Of a stretch of DNA of 64,000 bases, positions 2,849-9,505 are shown in pieces. Source of the stretch: Minisyncoccia bacterium (lineage in GTDB: Bacteria; Patescibacteriota; Minisyncoccia; Phycocordibacterales; CAJBRS01). The translations under genes and the position numbers were made by a program. The notes beneath the pieces were generated by a model, which worked only from the letters and a program-made list of their open reading frames with translations, had not been told where the DNA came from and did not search any database. The DNA is taken from contig JBBQRF010000001.1 of the NCBI GenBank assembly GCA_038215155.1, forward strand, positions 54,042 through 118,041, given 5' to 3'. How positions within the stretch are numbered: the first letter of the stretch is position 1; each line of letters starts with the position of its first letter.

Positions 2849-3556
2849 TTATCTTCGAAAGATTTTGAAAAACCAGCCGAAGAGACTAACTCCACTTGCA
2901 TGAGCGTCGATGAAAGCTTGTAAGGATGCTTGCTCTCTAACCAATACTTGAATTTGAGTGTTCAATTCTGCCTTTATAGCAACGTCAGTAGAAGAAGCAG
3001 CTAAAGCTCTTAATTGATTGATGGTTACTGTGGTGTTGGCTACCGCTGCTCTAAGGAGACTTAAACTAGTTTCATCTGTTCCAAAAAAGAAAACATGAAG
3101 TCGGCCTTGTCCTTCAAGATGGGACATTGCCGCAACAGTGCTTGAGCTTGAATGATCTTGATCTTCAGCAATGACACGAACCTTGGCTCCTATTCCTTTA
3201 TCGTGATCAGCAATATTAAGGAGATGCTGAACGAAACTAGCAACAACGCTTCGGTGCATGTCAGCACTTTCCTCACCCTGTGTTTCTACATCATTATCAT
3301 TCTTATCTTCGTTTCGTACCGTGGTAGTACTAGAATTATGTCCCGACACTTCGTCGCGTTCTCCACGATCTTTATGGCGAGAGTTTAAGTCACCATCAGC
3401 ATCTATTTCTTCAGAGGTATTTGCAGAATCTTCACCATTAGTAATCTTTAGTTGTGAATTCACGGAGGTTCGGAAATTTGTTTCCGCAAAAGCAAAACTG
3501 GAACTTATCAAACTAAGCATAAGGGCTAGGGATAAGAAAAGACTTGTTTTTTTCAT
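2849..3556 (-). CDS. secreted hypothetical protein
   Basis: N-terminal signal peptide MKKTSLFLSLALMLSLISSSFAFA, an acidic low-complexity middle and a helical C-terminus. No recognisable family. Confidence 0.6.
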   Translation of the reverse strand: MKKTSLFLSLALMLSLISSSFAFAETNFRTSVNSQLKITNGEDSANTSEEIDADGDLNSRHKDRGERDEVSGHNSSTTTVRNEDKNDNDVETQGEESADMHRSVVASFVQHLLNIADHDKGIGAKVRVIAEDQDHSSSSTVAAMSHLEGQGRLHVFFFGTDETSLSLLRAAVANTTVTINQLRALAASSTDVAIKAELNTQIQVLVREQASLQAFIDAHASGVSLFGWFFKIFRR

Positions 3557-3687
3557 GTTTAATATTTAATTAGTTATTAATAAATAAATCGGATAATACC
3601 CTCTACATCATAGCAGACGTATCGTCACAATCACTCTTACACACCCTCCTCTTTCAAAACGGCTTATTGTATGCTTATATTTAATTT

Positions 3688-6704: not shown

Positions 6705-7844
6705 TTATTTTTTATTTTCATAGTATTTCTGTCCATGAAGTTTTTCTGGCAATAAATCTTCTTTAGTATAGCGATCGTATCCTTTATGATAACCGAGATC
6801 TTTCATTAATTTAGTCGGGGCATTGCGAATCTTGAGAGGAACAGGCAGATTGCCAAATTTCCTGACGTCTACCAACGCTCGGCCGTATGCTTCGTATGAT
6901 GCCTTGGACTTTGGTTGACGGCATAAATAAACGGTGCCGTCAGCCAAATTAATAGCACATTCCGGCAAACCAATAACTTCTACTGCTTTAAAAACTTCGT
7001 TCGCCACTACTAATGCAGTAGGGTTGGCCTGCCCGACATCCTCCGATGCAAAAATAACCATTCGTCGTGCAATGAATTTAGGCTCCTCCCCTGACTCAAT
7101 CATTCGTGCCAAGTAATAAAGCGCTGCATCGGGCTGACCGGCGCGCATGCTCTTAATAAAGGCGCTAATAGTGTTGTAGTGTTCATCCCCTTTCTTATCA
7201 AAGCGTAGAAATTTATTTTGCATAGTCTCGGCCAAAGTCTCCAGCGTAATTTCTTCATATAATTTTGAAACTGCCTCGAGCATGGTAATAGCTTGCCGAG
7301 CATCTCCGTTTGCCATAGCTACCAACCACTCTTTCGCTTTATTAGAAAGTTTTAACTTTGTCCGATCAATTATCTTAAACATCTCATTCTCACTTAATTC
7401 ATTCAGTACAAAAACGCGACAACGGCTAAGTAGGGCTGGTATCACTTCAAAACTCGGATTTTCTGTAGTCGCCCCAATTAAAGTAATATCGCCACTCTCC
7501 ACATAAGGCAAAAGAAAATCCTGCTGAGTCTTATTGAAACGATGAATCTCATCTAAAAATAAAAGTTTTGGCTTCGAGAGTAAGGTTTTCTTTCCCAACA
7601 ATTGTTTAATATCTTCCTTGCCTGCCGAAACTGCGGAAAGATGATGGAATTCCACATCCAATGCGGCCGCATATATTTTAGCCAGGGTAGTTTTACCTAC
7701 ACCGGGTGGACCCCATAAAATAAAAGAGAAAAGGTGCTTTTCTTGTATAGCCATGCGCAACGGCTTATTGGGGGCCACCAAATGACCTTGCCCAACAAAT
7801 TCCTTTAGACTGCGAGGTCTAATGCGGGAAGCTAACGGTTCCAT
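6705..7844 (-). CDS. rarA: replication-associated recombination protein A (AAA+ ATPase)
   Basis: RPRSLKEFVGQ, Walker A WGPPGVGKTTLA, Walker B LFLDEIHRFNK, and the C-terminal MgsA domain (DAALYYLARM, FASEDVG). SD-like AGAGGAG lies 9 nt upstream. Confidence 0.9.
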   Translation of the reverse strand: MEPLASRIRPRSLKEFVGQGHLVAPNKPLRMAIQEKHLFSFILWGPPGVGKTTLAKIYAAALDVEFHHLSAVSAGKEDIKQLLGKKTLLSKPKLLFLDEIHRFNKTQQDFLLPYVESGDITLIGATTENPSFEVIPALLSRCRVFVLNELSENEMFKIIDRTKLKLSNKAKEWLVAMANGDARQAITMLEAVSKLYEEITLETLAETMQNKFLRFDKKGDEHYNTISAFIKSMRAGQPDAALYYLARMIESGEEPKFIARRMVIFASEDVGQANPTALVVANEVFKAVEVIGLPECAINLADGTVYLCRQPKSKASYEAYGRALVDVRKFGNLPVPLKIRNAPTKLMKDLGYHKGYDRYTKEDLLPEKLHGQKYYENKK

Positions 7845-8017
7845 AGCAAGGCACTCCTCTTTAGAACAAAGAAAGAGTCACTAGCTTGTTATGAAACTTC
7901 AGAAAGATCTGGAAGTGATTAGCAAAGCGATGTTTCGCTCGTTTTAATCGCTTCTCCTTTGTTTGATAATCGTAATACATCATATTATTTAAGACGTGAA
8001 TAGTTAATAAACCTTAC

Positions 8018-8587
8018 TTAGTATTTTCTAATGACTGCCCGGACGATTGCCGCAATTCTCATTTGATACTGGGGATAAATATTTGAATATTTCTTATTGG
8101 CTGGCTCGAGATAGGCCTGTCCACCCTTATCGTAGCGTAGGTATTTCATTGTCCATCCTCCATCGACTTCAGCAATGACGATATCGCCTGCTTTAGCCGT
8201 ACCTTTTCGATCCACTAGGACCATGTCCCCTTCTTCAATGTGAGCTTCAATCATGGAGTCACCTTTTACCTCTAAAAGATAGGAAGAATCTTTATTTTCC
8301 ACTAAAAAATCTTCTAAATTCAAAGTATTATCCTTGATCTCATCAGCTGTCTCGGGAATACCGGCTTCCACTACTCCTAATAAAGGAATTTCATTAAAGA
8401 TGTTGTTGAGAGTAATTCTCCCCATCGCATCCTTGTTCAAAACCTCTTCTTCTACCAGGCGATTAATTAATTTAAAAACAGCATTCTTAGATTTGAAGCC
8501 GAGAAGATTCATAATCTCTTTATAGCCTGGCAAGCGGCCGTGTTTTTGATAGAAAGCGACAATTTTATCTTTGTATTCTATTTTCAT
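8018..8587 (-). CDS. lexA: LexA repressor (S24 peptidase)
   Basis: N-terminal winged HTH. S24 catalytic region with GDSM (VKGDSMIEAHI) and a downstream Lys (TMKYL). Confidence 0.9.
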   Translation of the reverse strand: MKIEYKDKIVAFYQKHGRLPGYKEIMNLLGFKSKNAVFKLINRLVEEEVLNKDAMGRITLNNIFNEIPLLGVVEAGIPETADEIKDNTLNLEDFLVENKDSSYLLEVKGDSMIEAHIEEGDMVLVDRKGTAKAGDIVIAEVDGGWTMKYLRYDKGGQAYLEPANKKYSNIYPQYQMRIAAIVRAVIRKY

Positions 8588-8588
8588 A

Positions 8589-8798
8589 TTAGAAAAGGGT
8601 TAGGCCAAAATTGCTACTAAGTTTCTGCCCCAGCCACGAACTCCCTTCGCTTTGAAGACGGTTGAACCGTGATAGTAATATCTTGTGACGAGTGGAAAGA
8701 TTCCTATATCCTCGACCTTCAATAATAGCCAGATCAATCTGCTCATTTAGCTTGTCTAATTCATAGCGGATTCTTGTTAATAAGGCGTTTTTTGACAT
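8589..8798 (-). CDS. 69-aa SOS-box-controlled small protein, first gene of the lexA operon
   Basis: MSKNALLTRIRYELDKLNEQIDLAIIEGRGYRNLSTRHKILLSRFNRLQSEGSSWLGQKLSSNFGLTLF. I trimmed the start to the ATG at 8798 because the longer track ORF runs through a promoter and a terminator. Its stop is 1 nt from the lexA ATG (TAAtATG). Confidence 0.5.
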   Translation of the reverse strand: MSKNALLTRIRYELDKLNEQIDLAIIEGRGYRNLSTRHKILLSRFNRLQSEGSSWLGQKLSSNFGLTLF

Positions 8799-8804
8799 GA
8801 ATAT

Positions 8805-8834
8805 ATTATAGGTGAACGATAGTTCACCTGTCAA
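8805..8834 (-). promoter_or_regulatory. consensus sigma70 promoter of the small-ORF/lexA operon
   Basis: On the minus strand: TTGACA (8829-8834), 18 nt, TATAAT (8805-8810), 6 nt, ATG (8798). This geometry predicts a leaderless transcript. Confidence 0.7.
8810..8829. promoter_or_regulatory. SOS (LexA) box, GAAC-N4-GTTC type
   Basis: Perfect 8+8 palindrome AGGTGAAC-gata-GTTCACCT that fills the -35/-10 spacer. Its core matches the Gram-positive Cheo-box GAAC-N4-GTTC. Confidence 0.6.
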
Positions 8835-8865
8835 ATAGATGGCTGTGGATAACTTTGAAAAAGCA

Positions 8866-8893
8866 AAAGGTCCTGCGCAAGCGCAGGACCTTT
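8866..8893 (-). terminator. rho-independent terminator after the 8911-9240 gene
   Basis: aaaggtcctgcgc / gcgcaggaccttt (13-bp stem, 2-nt loop), followed on the minus strand by TTTTGCTTTTT. Confidence 0.7.
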
Positions 8894-8910
8894 GAATCAA
8901 AACTAACTAA

Positions 8911-9240
8911 TTATCGGAAGAATCCTTCGATTTCCTCGCGAATGTCCTCGACGGTACTGAGATCAGCAACTCCGTCGCTCAAAAAGCGAACGGCTCGAGA
9001 AGATCCATTTTCACCACTACCGACGCGGTGAAAGCGACCATTCGTGATTACTACCTTTCGAACTGTTATCACGGATACTGACAGTCCTTTCATATTTTCT
9101 TTTTGCTGATTTCGCGCCGAACGAGGACCATCAAGGATTTGATCTTTGAACGGAACGACAGATTTAGGTTTATTTGAAGTACTTTTTCTGGCAGCCTTCT
9201 GGTTTTTGCCTTTTCGAGATGGAGTAATTTTTCCAGCCAT
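8911..9240 (-). CDS. hypothetical basic 109-aa protein
   Basis: Track ORF trimmed to MAGKITPSRKGK... (ATG at 9240; 9249 and 9291 are alternatives). Followed by a strong terminator. No family recognised. Confidence 0.45.
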   Translation of the reverse strand: MAGKITPSRKGKNQKAARKSTSNKPKSVVPFKDQILDGPRSARNQQKENMKGLSVSVITVRKVVITNGRFHRVGSGENGSSRAVRFLSDGVADLSTVEDIREEIEGFFR

Positions 9241-9274
9241 TCTAAACATACAATACCAGGTAAATAGGAAATAG

Positions 9275-9505
9275 TCAATGGCTCTGGACAATACCTCGGA
9301 TGAAATTGAGAAGTAATAGAAAATCTTGCCAAATTATTTTAGTCAGTCCCCATACGTAGATGAAAAAATCTCGAACTGATTGCTTGGCCAAGAGACCGCT
9401 TAAACTAATATTTAAAAAATGAATAATGAGCAGAGCAATAATTAAGACGACAATGATTTGAATGATGCCTTGTTTATTTGGTCGTTTTTTCATTGACAAA
9501 GACAT
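9275..9505 (-). CDS. small hypothetical membrane protein
   Basis: 76-aa ORF with a TM segment (IIQIIVVLIIALLIIHF). It overlaps the asnB stop. An alternative start is MKKRPNK at 9493. Confidence 0.4.
   Translation of the reverse strand: MSLSMKKRPNKQGIIQIIVVLIIALLIIHFLNISLSGLLAKQSVRDFFIYVWGLTKIIWQDFLLLLNFIRGIVQSH

Follow-up and report, generated by a model that had tools for sequence, protein, structure and literature searches.

GAAC-N4-GTTC, also known as the Cheo box, is the consensus core of LexA operators of the Gram-positive type. Among the small proteins that invite comparison with the one described here, SulA is a protein of ~160 amino acids (aa) with an alpha/beta fold that binds FtsZ; it is repressed by LexA, is co-transcribed with lexA in the lexA-sulA operons of pseudomonads, and is short-lived by virtue of a C-terminal Lon degradation signal. 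YnzC (DUF896/UPF0291, PDB 2HEP/2JVD), a short protein without an assigned function, folds into a helical hairpin whose C-terminal part is floppy, a description that applies alike to the protein considered below. Sda of Bacillus subtilis is a helical hairpin of ~46 aa that has DnaA boxes in its promoter and blocks a step of the cell cycle via a partner, and gp7 of phage GIL01 is a small helical co-repressor whose function depends on LexA binding. Here we analyse a stretch of 64,000 nucleotides (nt) from a Minisyncoccia bacterium (contig JBBQRF010000001.1, positions 54,042 to 118,041; the whole stretch is referred to as the window), in which lexA is preceded on the minus strand by an unannotated open reading frame (ORF) for a basic protein of 69 aa, behind a single promoter whose spacer is filled by a palindrome with the Cheo core. 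The reading favoured here holds that the palindrome is the operator of an autoregulated lexA operon and that the small protein is a component of the SOS response; for both parts jointly, we put its probability at about 0.6.

The promoter consists of a -35 hexamer TTGACA (8834-8829, minus strand) and a -10 hexamer TATAAT (8810-8805, minus strand), which match the consensus at 12 of 12 positions and are separated by the 18-nt spacer GGTGAACTATCGTTCACC. A perfect TTGACA-N16-18-TATAAT is present as a single copy in the window, with 0.03 expected from shuffled sequences. The spacer is filled by GTGAAC-N4-GTTCAC, which belongs to a perfect 20-bp palindrome, AGGTGAAC-N4-GTTCACCT (8810-8829), that shares one base with each hexamer and forms the predicted LexA operator (SOS box). 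LexA is expected to bind at 8810-8829, and its position between the -35 and the -10 would make this a classic case of RNA polymerase exclusion. The bare GAAC-N4-GTTC core likewise occurs once in the window, yet 0.8 copies are expected by chance, so that its uniqueness alone means little; the extended operator scores 32.6 bits on a matrix derived from 79 orthologous sites, every other site in the window stays at or below 8 bits, and 50 shuffles gave a maximum of 15.8. Upstream lies the intrinsic terminator of the preceding gene (8893-8866, minus strand), with a 12-bp stem containing seven G-C pairs, a loop of four and a T-run; it folds with -20.7 kcal/mol (z = -3.9), a value equalled by none of 200 shuffles. 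Its presence isolates the promoter from read-through and argues that a 103-aa ORF, which would extend the small ORF upstream, is an artefact. An earlier sequence-only reading of this stretch had reported the order TTGACA-spacer-TATAAT-atattc-ATG on the minus strand, the perfect 20-bp palindrome at 8810-8829, the strong terminator at 8866-8893 and the lack of any other GAAC-N4-GTTC in the window; these statements hold, and the last also applies to the extended site in the matrix scan.

The promoter-operator unit was compared across 80 lexA loci taken from contigs representing one genome per species (LexA identity 47-66%). In 79 of 81 loci the module opens with TTGAC(A/G)-N-GTGAAC-N4-GTTCAC-N-TATA(A/C)T ahead of its first gene, always with the operator in the spacer, and the extended operator consensus (A/G)GTGAAC-N4-GTTCAC(C/T) recurs just as widely (79/81). 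The -35 is kept as TTGAC(A/G) at the same place in orthologous loci and the -10 as TATA(A/C)T in relatives, the latter with at least four of six positions matching at its fixed place in 69 of 79 loci. Loci without the small ORF have the unit directly before lexA (nine loci, and several more in metagenome contigs). A metagenome scan with GGTGAAC-N4-GTTCACC returned, among matches in a promoter context, lexA operons with one sole exception: in contig L195 (site at 3349), TTGCA-GGTGAAC-N4-GTTCACC-TATACT lies with leaderless spacing ahead of a gene for a UmuD-like S24 protein that has no DNA-binding domain (MQINGFAAGAEDELADT...); no further target of the box other than lexA was seen. The occurrence of the box both before lexA genes without a small ORF and before the UmuD-like gene suggests that LexA, and not the small protein, is the likely binder. 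Overall, the comparison lends strong support to the regulatory account given in the sequence-only reading, with a consensus promoter, a LexA box in its spacer, an autoregulated lexA and a co-transcribed small ORF. As judged from sequence, the regulatory part is of an ordinary kind, an autoregulated lexA with a box of the Gram-positive type, and is well supported; less ordinary, on the same grounds, are the conserved and unannotated first gene, the leaderless variant and a conserved DnaA-type box.

The other matches of the metagenome scan are mostly chance occurrences in organisms with a high content of guanine and cytosine (GC), plus a recurrent terminator hairpin. This hairpin, AAAAAA-GGTGAAC-N4-GTTCACC-TTTTTT, recurs in the metagenomic contigs L089, L132, L133, L137, L143, L164, L166 and L181, which have 31-40% GC and sometimes carry two copies ~250 nt apart; it looks like the shared bidirectional terminator of some low-GC organism, unrelated to LexA. 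Its recurrence makes the 14-base core alone unusable for finding SOS boxes in metagenomes.

The second gene of the operon, lexA (8587-8018, minus strand), encodes a protein of 189 aa with a probable N-terminal DNA-binding domain and an S24 self-cleaving domain. Peptidase_S24 (Pfam PF00717) matches residues 68-180 at 8.5e-26, and the Ala75-Gly76 cleavage site (VEAG), Ser111 (GDSM) and Lys148 are invariant in an alignment of 23 relatives. The match to the N-terminal PF01726 (E = 0.015) falls below the threshold of that family, and the NCBIfam lexA equivalog TIGR00498 is aligned over positions 15-201 of 203 with 105.1 bits, against a cut-off of 110.95. The protein has 5175 relatives, the closest of which come from Candidatus Paceibacterota, and many of those that are 60-80% identical are named LexA by their source; these relationships place the organism among the Patescibacteria.

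The small ORF (8798-8589, minus strand) encodes a basic protein of 69 aa that belongs to an unannotated Patescibacteria family, and its stop lies 1 nt before the lexA start codon in a TAAtATG junction (8585..8591, minus strand), just as the sequence-only reading had described the passage from one gene into the other. The dismissal in that reading of the 103-aa ORF, which has a TTG start, is confirmed by the homologues, which align from the ATG (M-S/G-K...) and show upstream similarity only in the promoter block. In a 71% identical homologue at the same place in a 462-kb Paceibacterota contig, similarity begins exactly at the ATG and nucleotide differences are concentrated at third codon positions; the ratio of nonsynonymous to synonymous substitution rates (dN/dS) is 0.04-0.17 in five pairs without saturation of dS. 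Judged by these substitution patterns, the small ORF is a real gene under purifying selection. The alternative of an RNA element in place of a gene was considered and rejected, with no Rfam match at E < 0.05 in 7800-9400. An exhaustive profile search defines the family as 117 clusters at 50% identity, nearly all of 60-90 aa, and a second search gave 81 proteins, every one of them labelled 'hypothetical' and none with a Pfam domain. The family has no match in Pfam or NCBIfam (66 members searched), in PHROGs or among PDB sequences, in agreement with the earlier assertion that the protein is of an unrecognised kind.

The linkage of the small ORF to lexA is close. A profile of the small protein finds it adjoining lexA on the same strand in 72 of 82 related loci, and the ten loci without it are those with a more divergent LexA. 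Among non-redundant loci, the small ORF lies upstream of lexA in 67 and immediately downstream in three (L039, L043 and L052); in 56 of the 67, no more than 40 nt separate it from lexA, and in seven the two genes overlap (-8 to -1). When the look-up was made reciprocally, from homologues of the small protein, a Peptidase_S24 gene of ~188 aa was found immediately downstream in four of four cases with completely different surrounding genes, and the pair therefore forms an inseparable module that is mobile in context. The sequence-only reading had staked itself on conservation of the ORF upstream of lexA in relatives, and both the 72 of 82 loci and the four reciprocal look-ups keep the pair. Since the arrangement is kept in about 70 related genomes, the small protein is very probably part of the damage response. 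In five relatives (L006, L011, L014, L019 and L063) the small ORF and lexA are separated by 210-260 nt of non-conserved sequence, and in L006 a terminator-like hairpin sits right behind the small ORF. These long gaps contain no second LexA box, and the ratio of the two products may therefore be set differently in those relatives; ORFs and sequence in the gaps of 50-260 nt found among relatives are neither conserved nor paralogous.

The ATG of the small ORF (8798-8796, minus strand) is preceded by TATAAT-ATATTC; counted from the end of the -10, its A is the seventh nt and the predicted transcription start. Across the relatives the first ATG follows the operator at one of two ranges of distance, a bimodal distribution in which 17 of 79 loci have 13-17 nt and the others 24-182 nt. 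In the short class the -10 ends six or seven bases before the ATG. The window belongs to this class together with L001, the relative closest to it, and several other, unrelated loci, some members of the class having lexA as the first gene. The recurrence of this exact spacing supports a leaderless start here, with the A of the ATG as the most likely first base of the transcript in this genome. The leaderless geometry proposed earlier is thus upheld for the present locus, and fails as a description of the operon at large (17/79 loci). Shine-Dalgarno-like (SD) cores (GGAG, GAGG, AGGA) precede the first ATG in only three of the 56 ORFs of at least 150 aa in the window; given this rarity, little can be read from the absence of one before lexA. 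The layout of the two genes makes translational coupling at the TAAtATG junction plausible. Nearly all large ORFs of the window are on the minus strand, and a -10-like hexamer is found 6 nt upstream of three more ATGs (3688, plus strand; 43544 and 27970, minus strand); leaderless or SD-independent initiation may be common in this organism.

The earlier account of the promoter was correct in its elements and missed a conserved sequence just upstream of the -35. There, TTATCCACA (8852-8844, minus strand), which is identical to the consensus DnaA box, precedes the -35 by 9 nt, at about -54 to -46 from the predicted start. Its frequency was assessed in the 49 nt upstream of the -35 of 79 non-redundant loci, with the expectation taken from the rest of the same loci. 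A perfect TTATCCACA is present in 40 of the 79 (0.09 expected) and a copy with at most one mismatch in 69 (1.25 expected), with identical orientation in 65 of these 69; L001 has the box at the same place as the window. The offsets of the box from the operator cluster at -16, at -22 to -25 (49 loci) and at ~-35, i.e. in steps of approximately one helical turn. Further perfect copies are scarce, with only 11 in 485 kb of loci and one more in the window, located inside a gene, which argues that TTATCCACA is not a general promoter element. The box (at most one mismatch) accompanies 66 of 70 loci with the small ORF versus three of nine lexA-only loci (Fisher p = 5e-5). If it works as a DnaA box, the sensing of damage and of replication initiation would converge on lexA, a wiring of which no report was found; likewise, no published description of a DnaA box at a lexA promoter was found, and the literature on DnaA boxes of the candidate phyla radiation (CPR) is minimal.

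A second perfect TTATCCACA occurs on the minus strand in five Zambryskibacteria-like genomes (L008:4667, L009:4256, L023:5749, L036:4431 and L037:4254). This copy is found 0.7-2.7 kb downstream of lexA, between genes and outside any ORF, in the conserved context GTCAAT-N4-5-TTATCCACA, with another box-like 9-mer following 3 nt later, and these intergenic stretches match no Rfam family. They may represent another DnaA-controlled promoter or an origin-like cluster.

An AlphaFold2 model of the small protein, based on an alignment of 66 sequences, shows an antiparallel helical hairpin (helices 3-27 and 32-53; mean predicted local distance difference test score 83) followed by a low-confidence tail of 16 residues (54-69) rich in Phe, Ser and Arg. 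E13, N18, I21, D22, I25, G28, Y31, H38 and K39 are invariant or nearly so and are grouped around the turn. Net charge ranges from +5 to +12 in ~67 residues. No member has a membrane-spanning hydrophobic stretch, the highest 19-residue hydropathy average being below 1.5. The last 16 residues contain 18% Phe, 15.5% Ser and 13% Lys plus Arg, with 1.7% acidic residues (D+E), and their amphipathicity is weakly above that of shuffles (mean moment 0.51, z = +0.8). Two apparent relationships were rejected. Weak HisKA matches in three of 66 members (best E = 0.0023) were judged to be helical-hairpin noise, and homology to YnzC/DUF896 gave an hhalign probability of 0.3% over three aligned columns (66-sequence profile) and no PF05979 match.

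On these grounds the following mechanism can be proposed. One near-perfect sigma-70-type promoter would give rise to a two-gene transcript encoding the 69-aa protein and then LexA. A LexA dimer on GTGAAC-N4-GTTCAC would fill the spacer between the -35 and the -10 and thereby exclude RNA polymerase; upon DNA damage, RecA-stimulated self-cleavage of LexA at Ala75-Gly76 would free the promoter, and the small protein and LexA would be made in fixed proportion until new LexA closes it again, with lexA being translated by ribosomes that terminate 1 nt upstream at TAAtATG. DnaA, bound at TTATCCACA one helical turn upstream of the -35, would most likely modulate the same promoter, and the operon could thereby sense replication status besides damage. 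The hairpin of the small protein would bind a protein partner, and the tail would be a peptide for docking to the membrane or to a partner, or else a signal for degradation.

The function that this mechanism would assign to the small protein is that of a checkpoint effector induced by damage and replication stress, which is put forward tentatively and may well prove wrong. It is favoured by the precedent of small SOS proteins, specific to their lineages, that are encoded next to lexA, by a tail that resembles docking or degradation peptides, and by the link between the DnaA-type box and the small ORF. The failure to place the protein in the SulA, YneA or YnzC families lowers the case for identity with those families, not for likeness in action. 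A more far-reaching version, which we consider rather doubtful, is that of a new CPR-specific checkpoint class, in which LexA and DnaA signals meet on ~60 bp and the hairpin binds DnaA, DnaN, FtsZ or FtsA; the aromatic C-terminal tail would then tether or destabilise the protein. If true, this would be a single-gene replacement for the separate LexA- and DnaA-dependent checkpoints of Bacillus.

Alternatively, the small protein could be a stoichiometric partner or modulator of LexA (or RecA) and tune the SOS switch, as a co-repressor or by inhibiting self-cleavage. Models for such a role exist in gp7 of phage GIL01, which acts on LexA, and in DinI and RecX, which act on RecA. It is supported by the pairing with lexA in a single transcript, which is obligatory irrespective of gene order and surroundings, and by the tight or overlapping junctions, which favour synthesis in a fixed ratio. 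Further support comes from four polar residues (N18, D22, Y31 and H38) that are invariant, lie close to the turn of the helical hairpin and resemble a binding surface, and from the confinement of the family to the lineage whose LexA it accompanies. However, LexA works alone in the ten of 82 loci without the small ORF, and a pure LexA cofactor would account neither for the conserved tail, with its aromatic and basic residues, nor for the association of the DnaA-type box with the small ORF; in our view a LexA partner is a serious candidate, below even odds but nearly as likely as the checkpoint effector. Improbable is a third role, in which the small basic hairpin binds nucleic acids as a Rop-type DNA- or RNA-binding dimer or as a nucleoid protein made upon damage, to which its net charge, a helical hairpin of the size found in four-helix-bundle dimers and a conserved R-H-K motif in helix 2 lend some colour. 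It is highly improbable that the palindrome is the operator of another regulator (such as the small protein itself) or that the true start lies upstream and the transcript has a leader, given that the box also stands in lexA promoters without the small ORF and before the UmuD-like S24 gene, that its core equals the GAAC-N4-GTTC of Gram-positive-type LexA, that a strong terminator lies 32 nt upstream of the -35 and that the 6-nt distance from -10 to ATG recurs independently in 17 loci, even though no other box in the window or the lexA flanks ties the palindrome to repair genes and the citing sentence of one article (PMC7739468) links a published Patescibacteria study to direct-repeat motifs.

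The SOS network of Patescibacteria has reportedly been analysed by Sanchez-Osuna, Barbe and Erill (2017, Environ Microbiol 19:3465), and a palindromic box or a hypothetical gene ahead of lexA may already have been noted in that study. Several points weigh against the favoured reading of a LexA-controlled operon with a small effector of the SOS response. In the citing sentence just mentioned, the 2017 study stands among the cases of direct-repeat LexA motifs. The matrix scan finds no second LexA box in the 64-kb window, and there is no further box within 3 kb on each side of lexA in 80 genomes, so that the box is attributed to LexA by its place in front of lexA, by its occurrence before a single UmuD-like gene and by its agreement with the Gram-positive consensus. 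A role for DnaA at TTATCCACA is suggested by identity to the pan-bacterial consensus; no dnaA gene or origin was found in the window or the related loci. Leaderlessness does not appear to be essential to the operon, most relatives having a leader of 24-182 nt. As to the small protein, its strict co-transcription with lexA would fit a LexA partner at least as well as an effector, fold searches with the model retrieve generic hairpins only, and no known division-inhibitor domain is found in the 66 members searched against Pfam and NCBIfam. The suggestion of a division or replication inhibitor in the sequence-only reading was pure inference and gains nothing from the protein itself, which has no homology to SulA, YneA, ChiZ or YnzC, no membrane span and a generic fold.

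The neighbourhood of the operon is variable. A gene for the recombination ATPase RarA/MgsA (6705-7844, minus strand) follows lexA after a spacer of 173 nt (7845-8017), which contains a weak promoter-like site at 8007-7979 and, at 7882-7954, a match to ROSE_3 that falls below the threshold (E = 0.07). Its membership in a conserved operon was rejected, rarA being found downstream of lexA only in the closest relatives (L001 and L020). In one relative, L206, a gene directly 3' of lexA (3304-3672) encodes a product of 122 aa that matches nothing but IMS_C, the domain at the C-terminal end of Y-family polymerases; a dinB/umuC gene that has been truncated or split may belong to the lexA operon there. 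Upstream of the terminator, 8911-9213 (minus strand) encodes a Lys/Ser-rich protein of ~100 aa without a Pfam or NCBIfam match, and the matching position in L001 is occupied by an unrelated gene on the opposite strand.

Much of bacterial diversity belongs to the Patescibacteria. Their genomes are minimal and almost none of them has been cultured, which makes conserved regulatory modules one of the few handles on their cell biology. The gene pair provides a widely conserved candidate SOS protein that lacks annotation in any of the libraries searched, and should it be a checkpoint effector or a modulator of LexA, it would represent a new molecular solution for that role. It also bears on annotation, as gene callers stretch the small ORF to 103 aa here, or miss it.

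How, then, does the locus compare with the systems introduced at the outset? The yneA-yneB-ynzC region of Bacillus subtilis is similar in that small proteins are encoded beside lexA under a GAAC-N4-GTTC box. There, however, the yneA operon diverges from lexA, whereas here the small gene is in the same transcript and usually ahead of lexA; YneA, a division inhibitor, carries a transmembrane segment and a LysM domain, whereas the small protein has neither and gives no Pfam match to DUF896, LysM or YneA. SulA and the small protein share no sequence or fold similarity, but the C-terminal degradation signal of SulA illustrates one possible role for the conserved tail. The logic of Sda would apply to the small protein if the TTATCCACA box is functional; unlike Sda, which is not controlled by LexA and acts on sporulation kinases that are not expected in Patescibacteria, the small protein has no Sda-family match, and its promoter combines a DnaA-type box with a LexA operator. 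The SOS division inhibitors SidA and DidA of Caulobacter and SosA of Staphylococcus are, like the small protein, very small, lineage-restricted and without family annotation, and are induced by damage, as it would be; they are hydrophobic membrane proteins, whereas the small protein is a basic, soluble hairpin whose 16-residue tail is at best weakly amphipathic. Phage GIL01 gp7 serves as the model for a LexA partner, although it is phage-encoded and the small protein matches no phage family in PHROGs. Set against these systems, the operon, headed by a gene whose product is unnamed in any source found, is a variant on the known theme of the autoregulated lexA.

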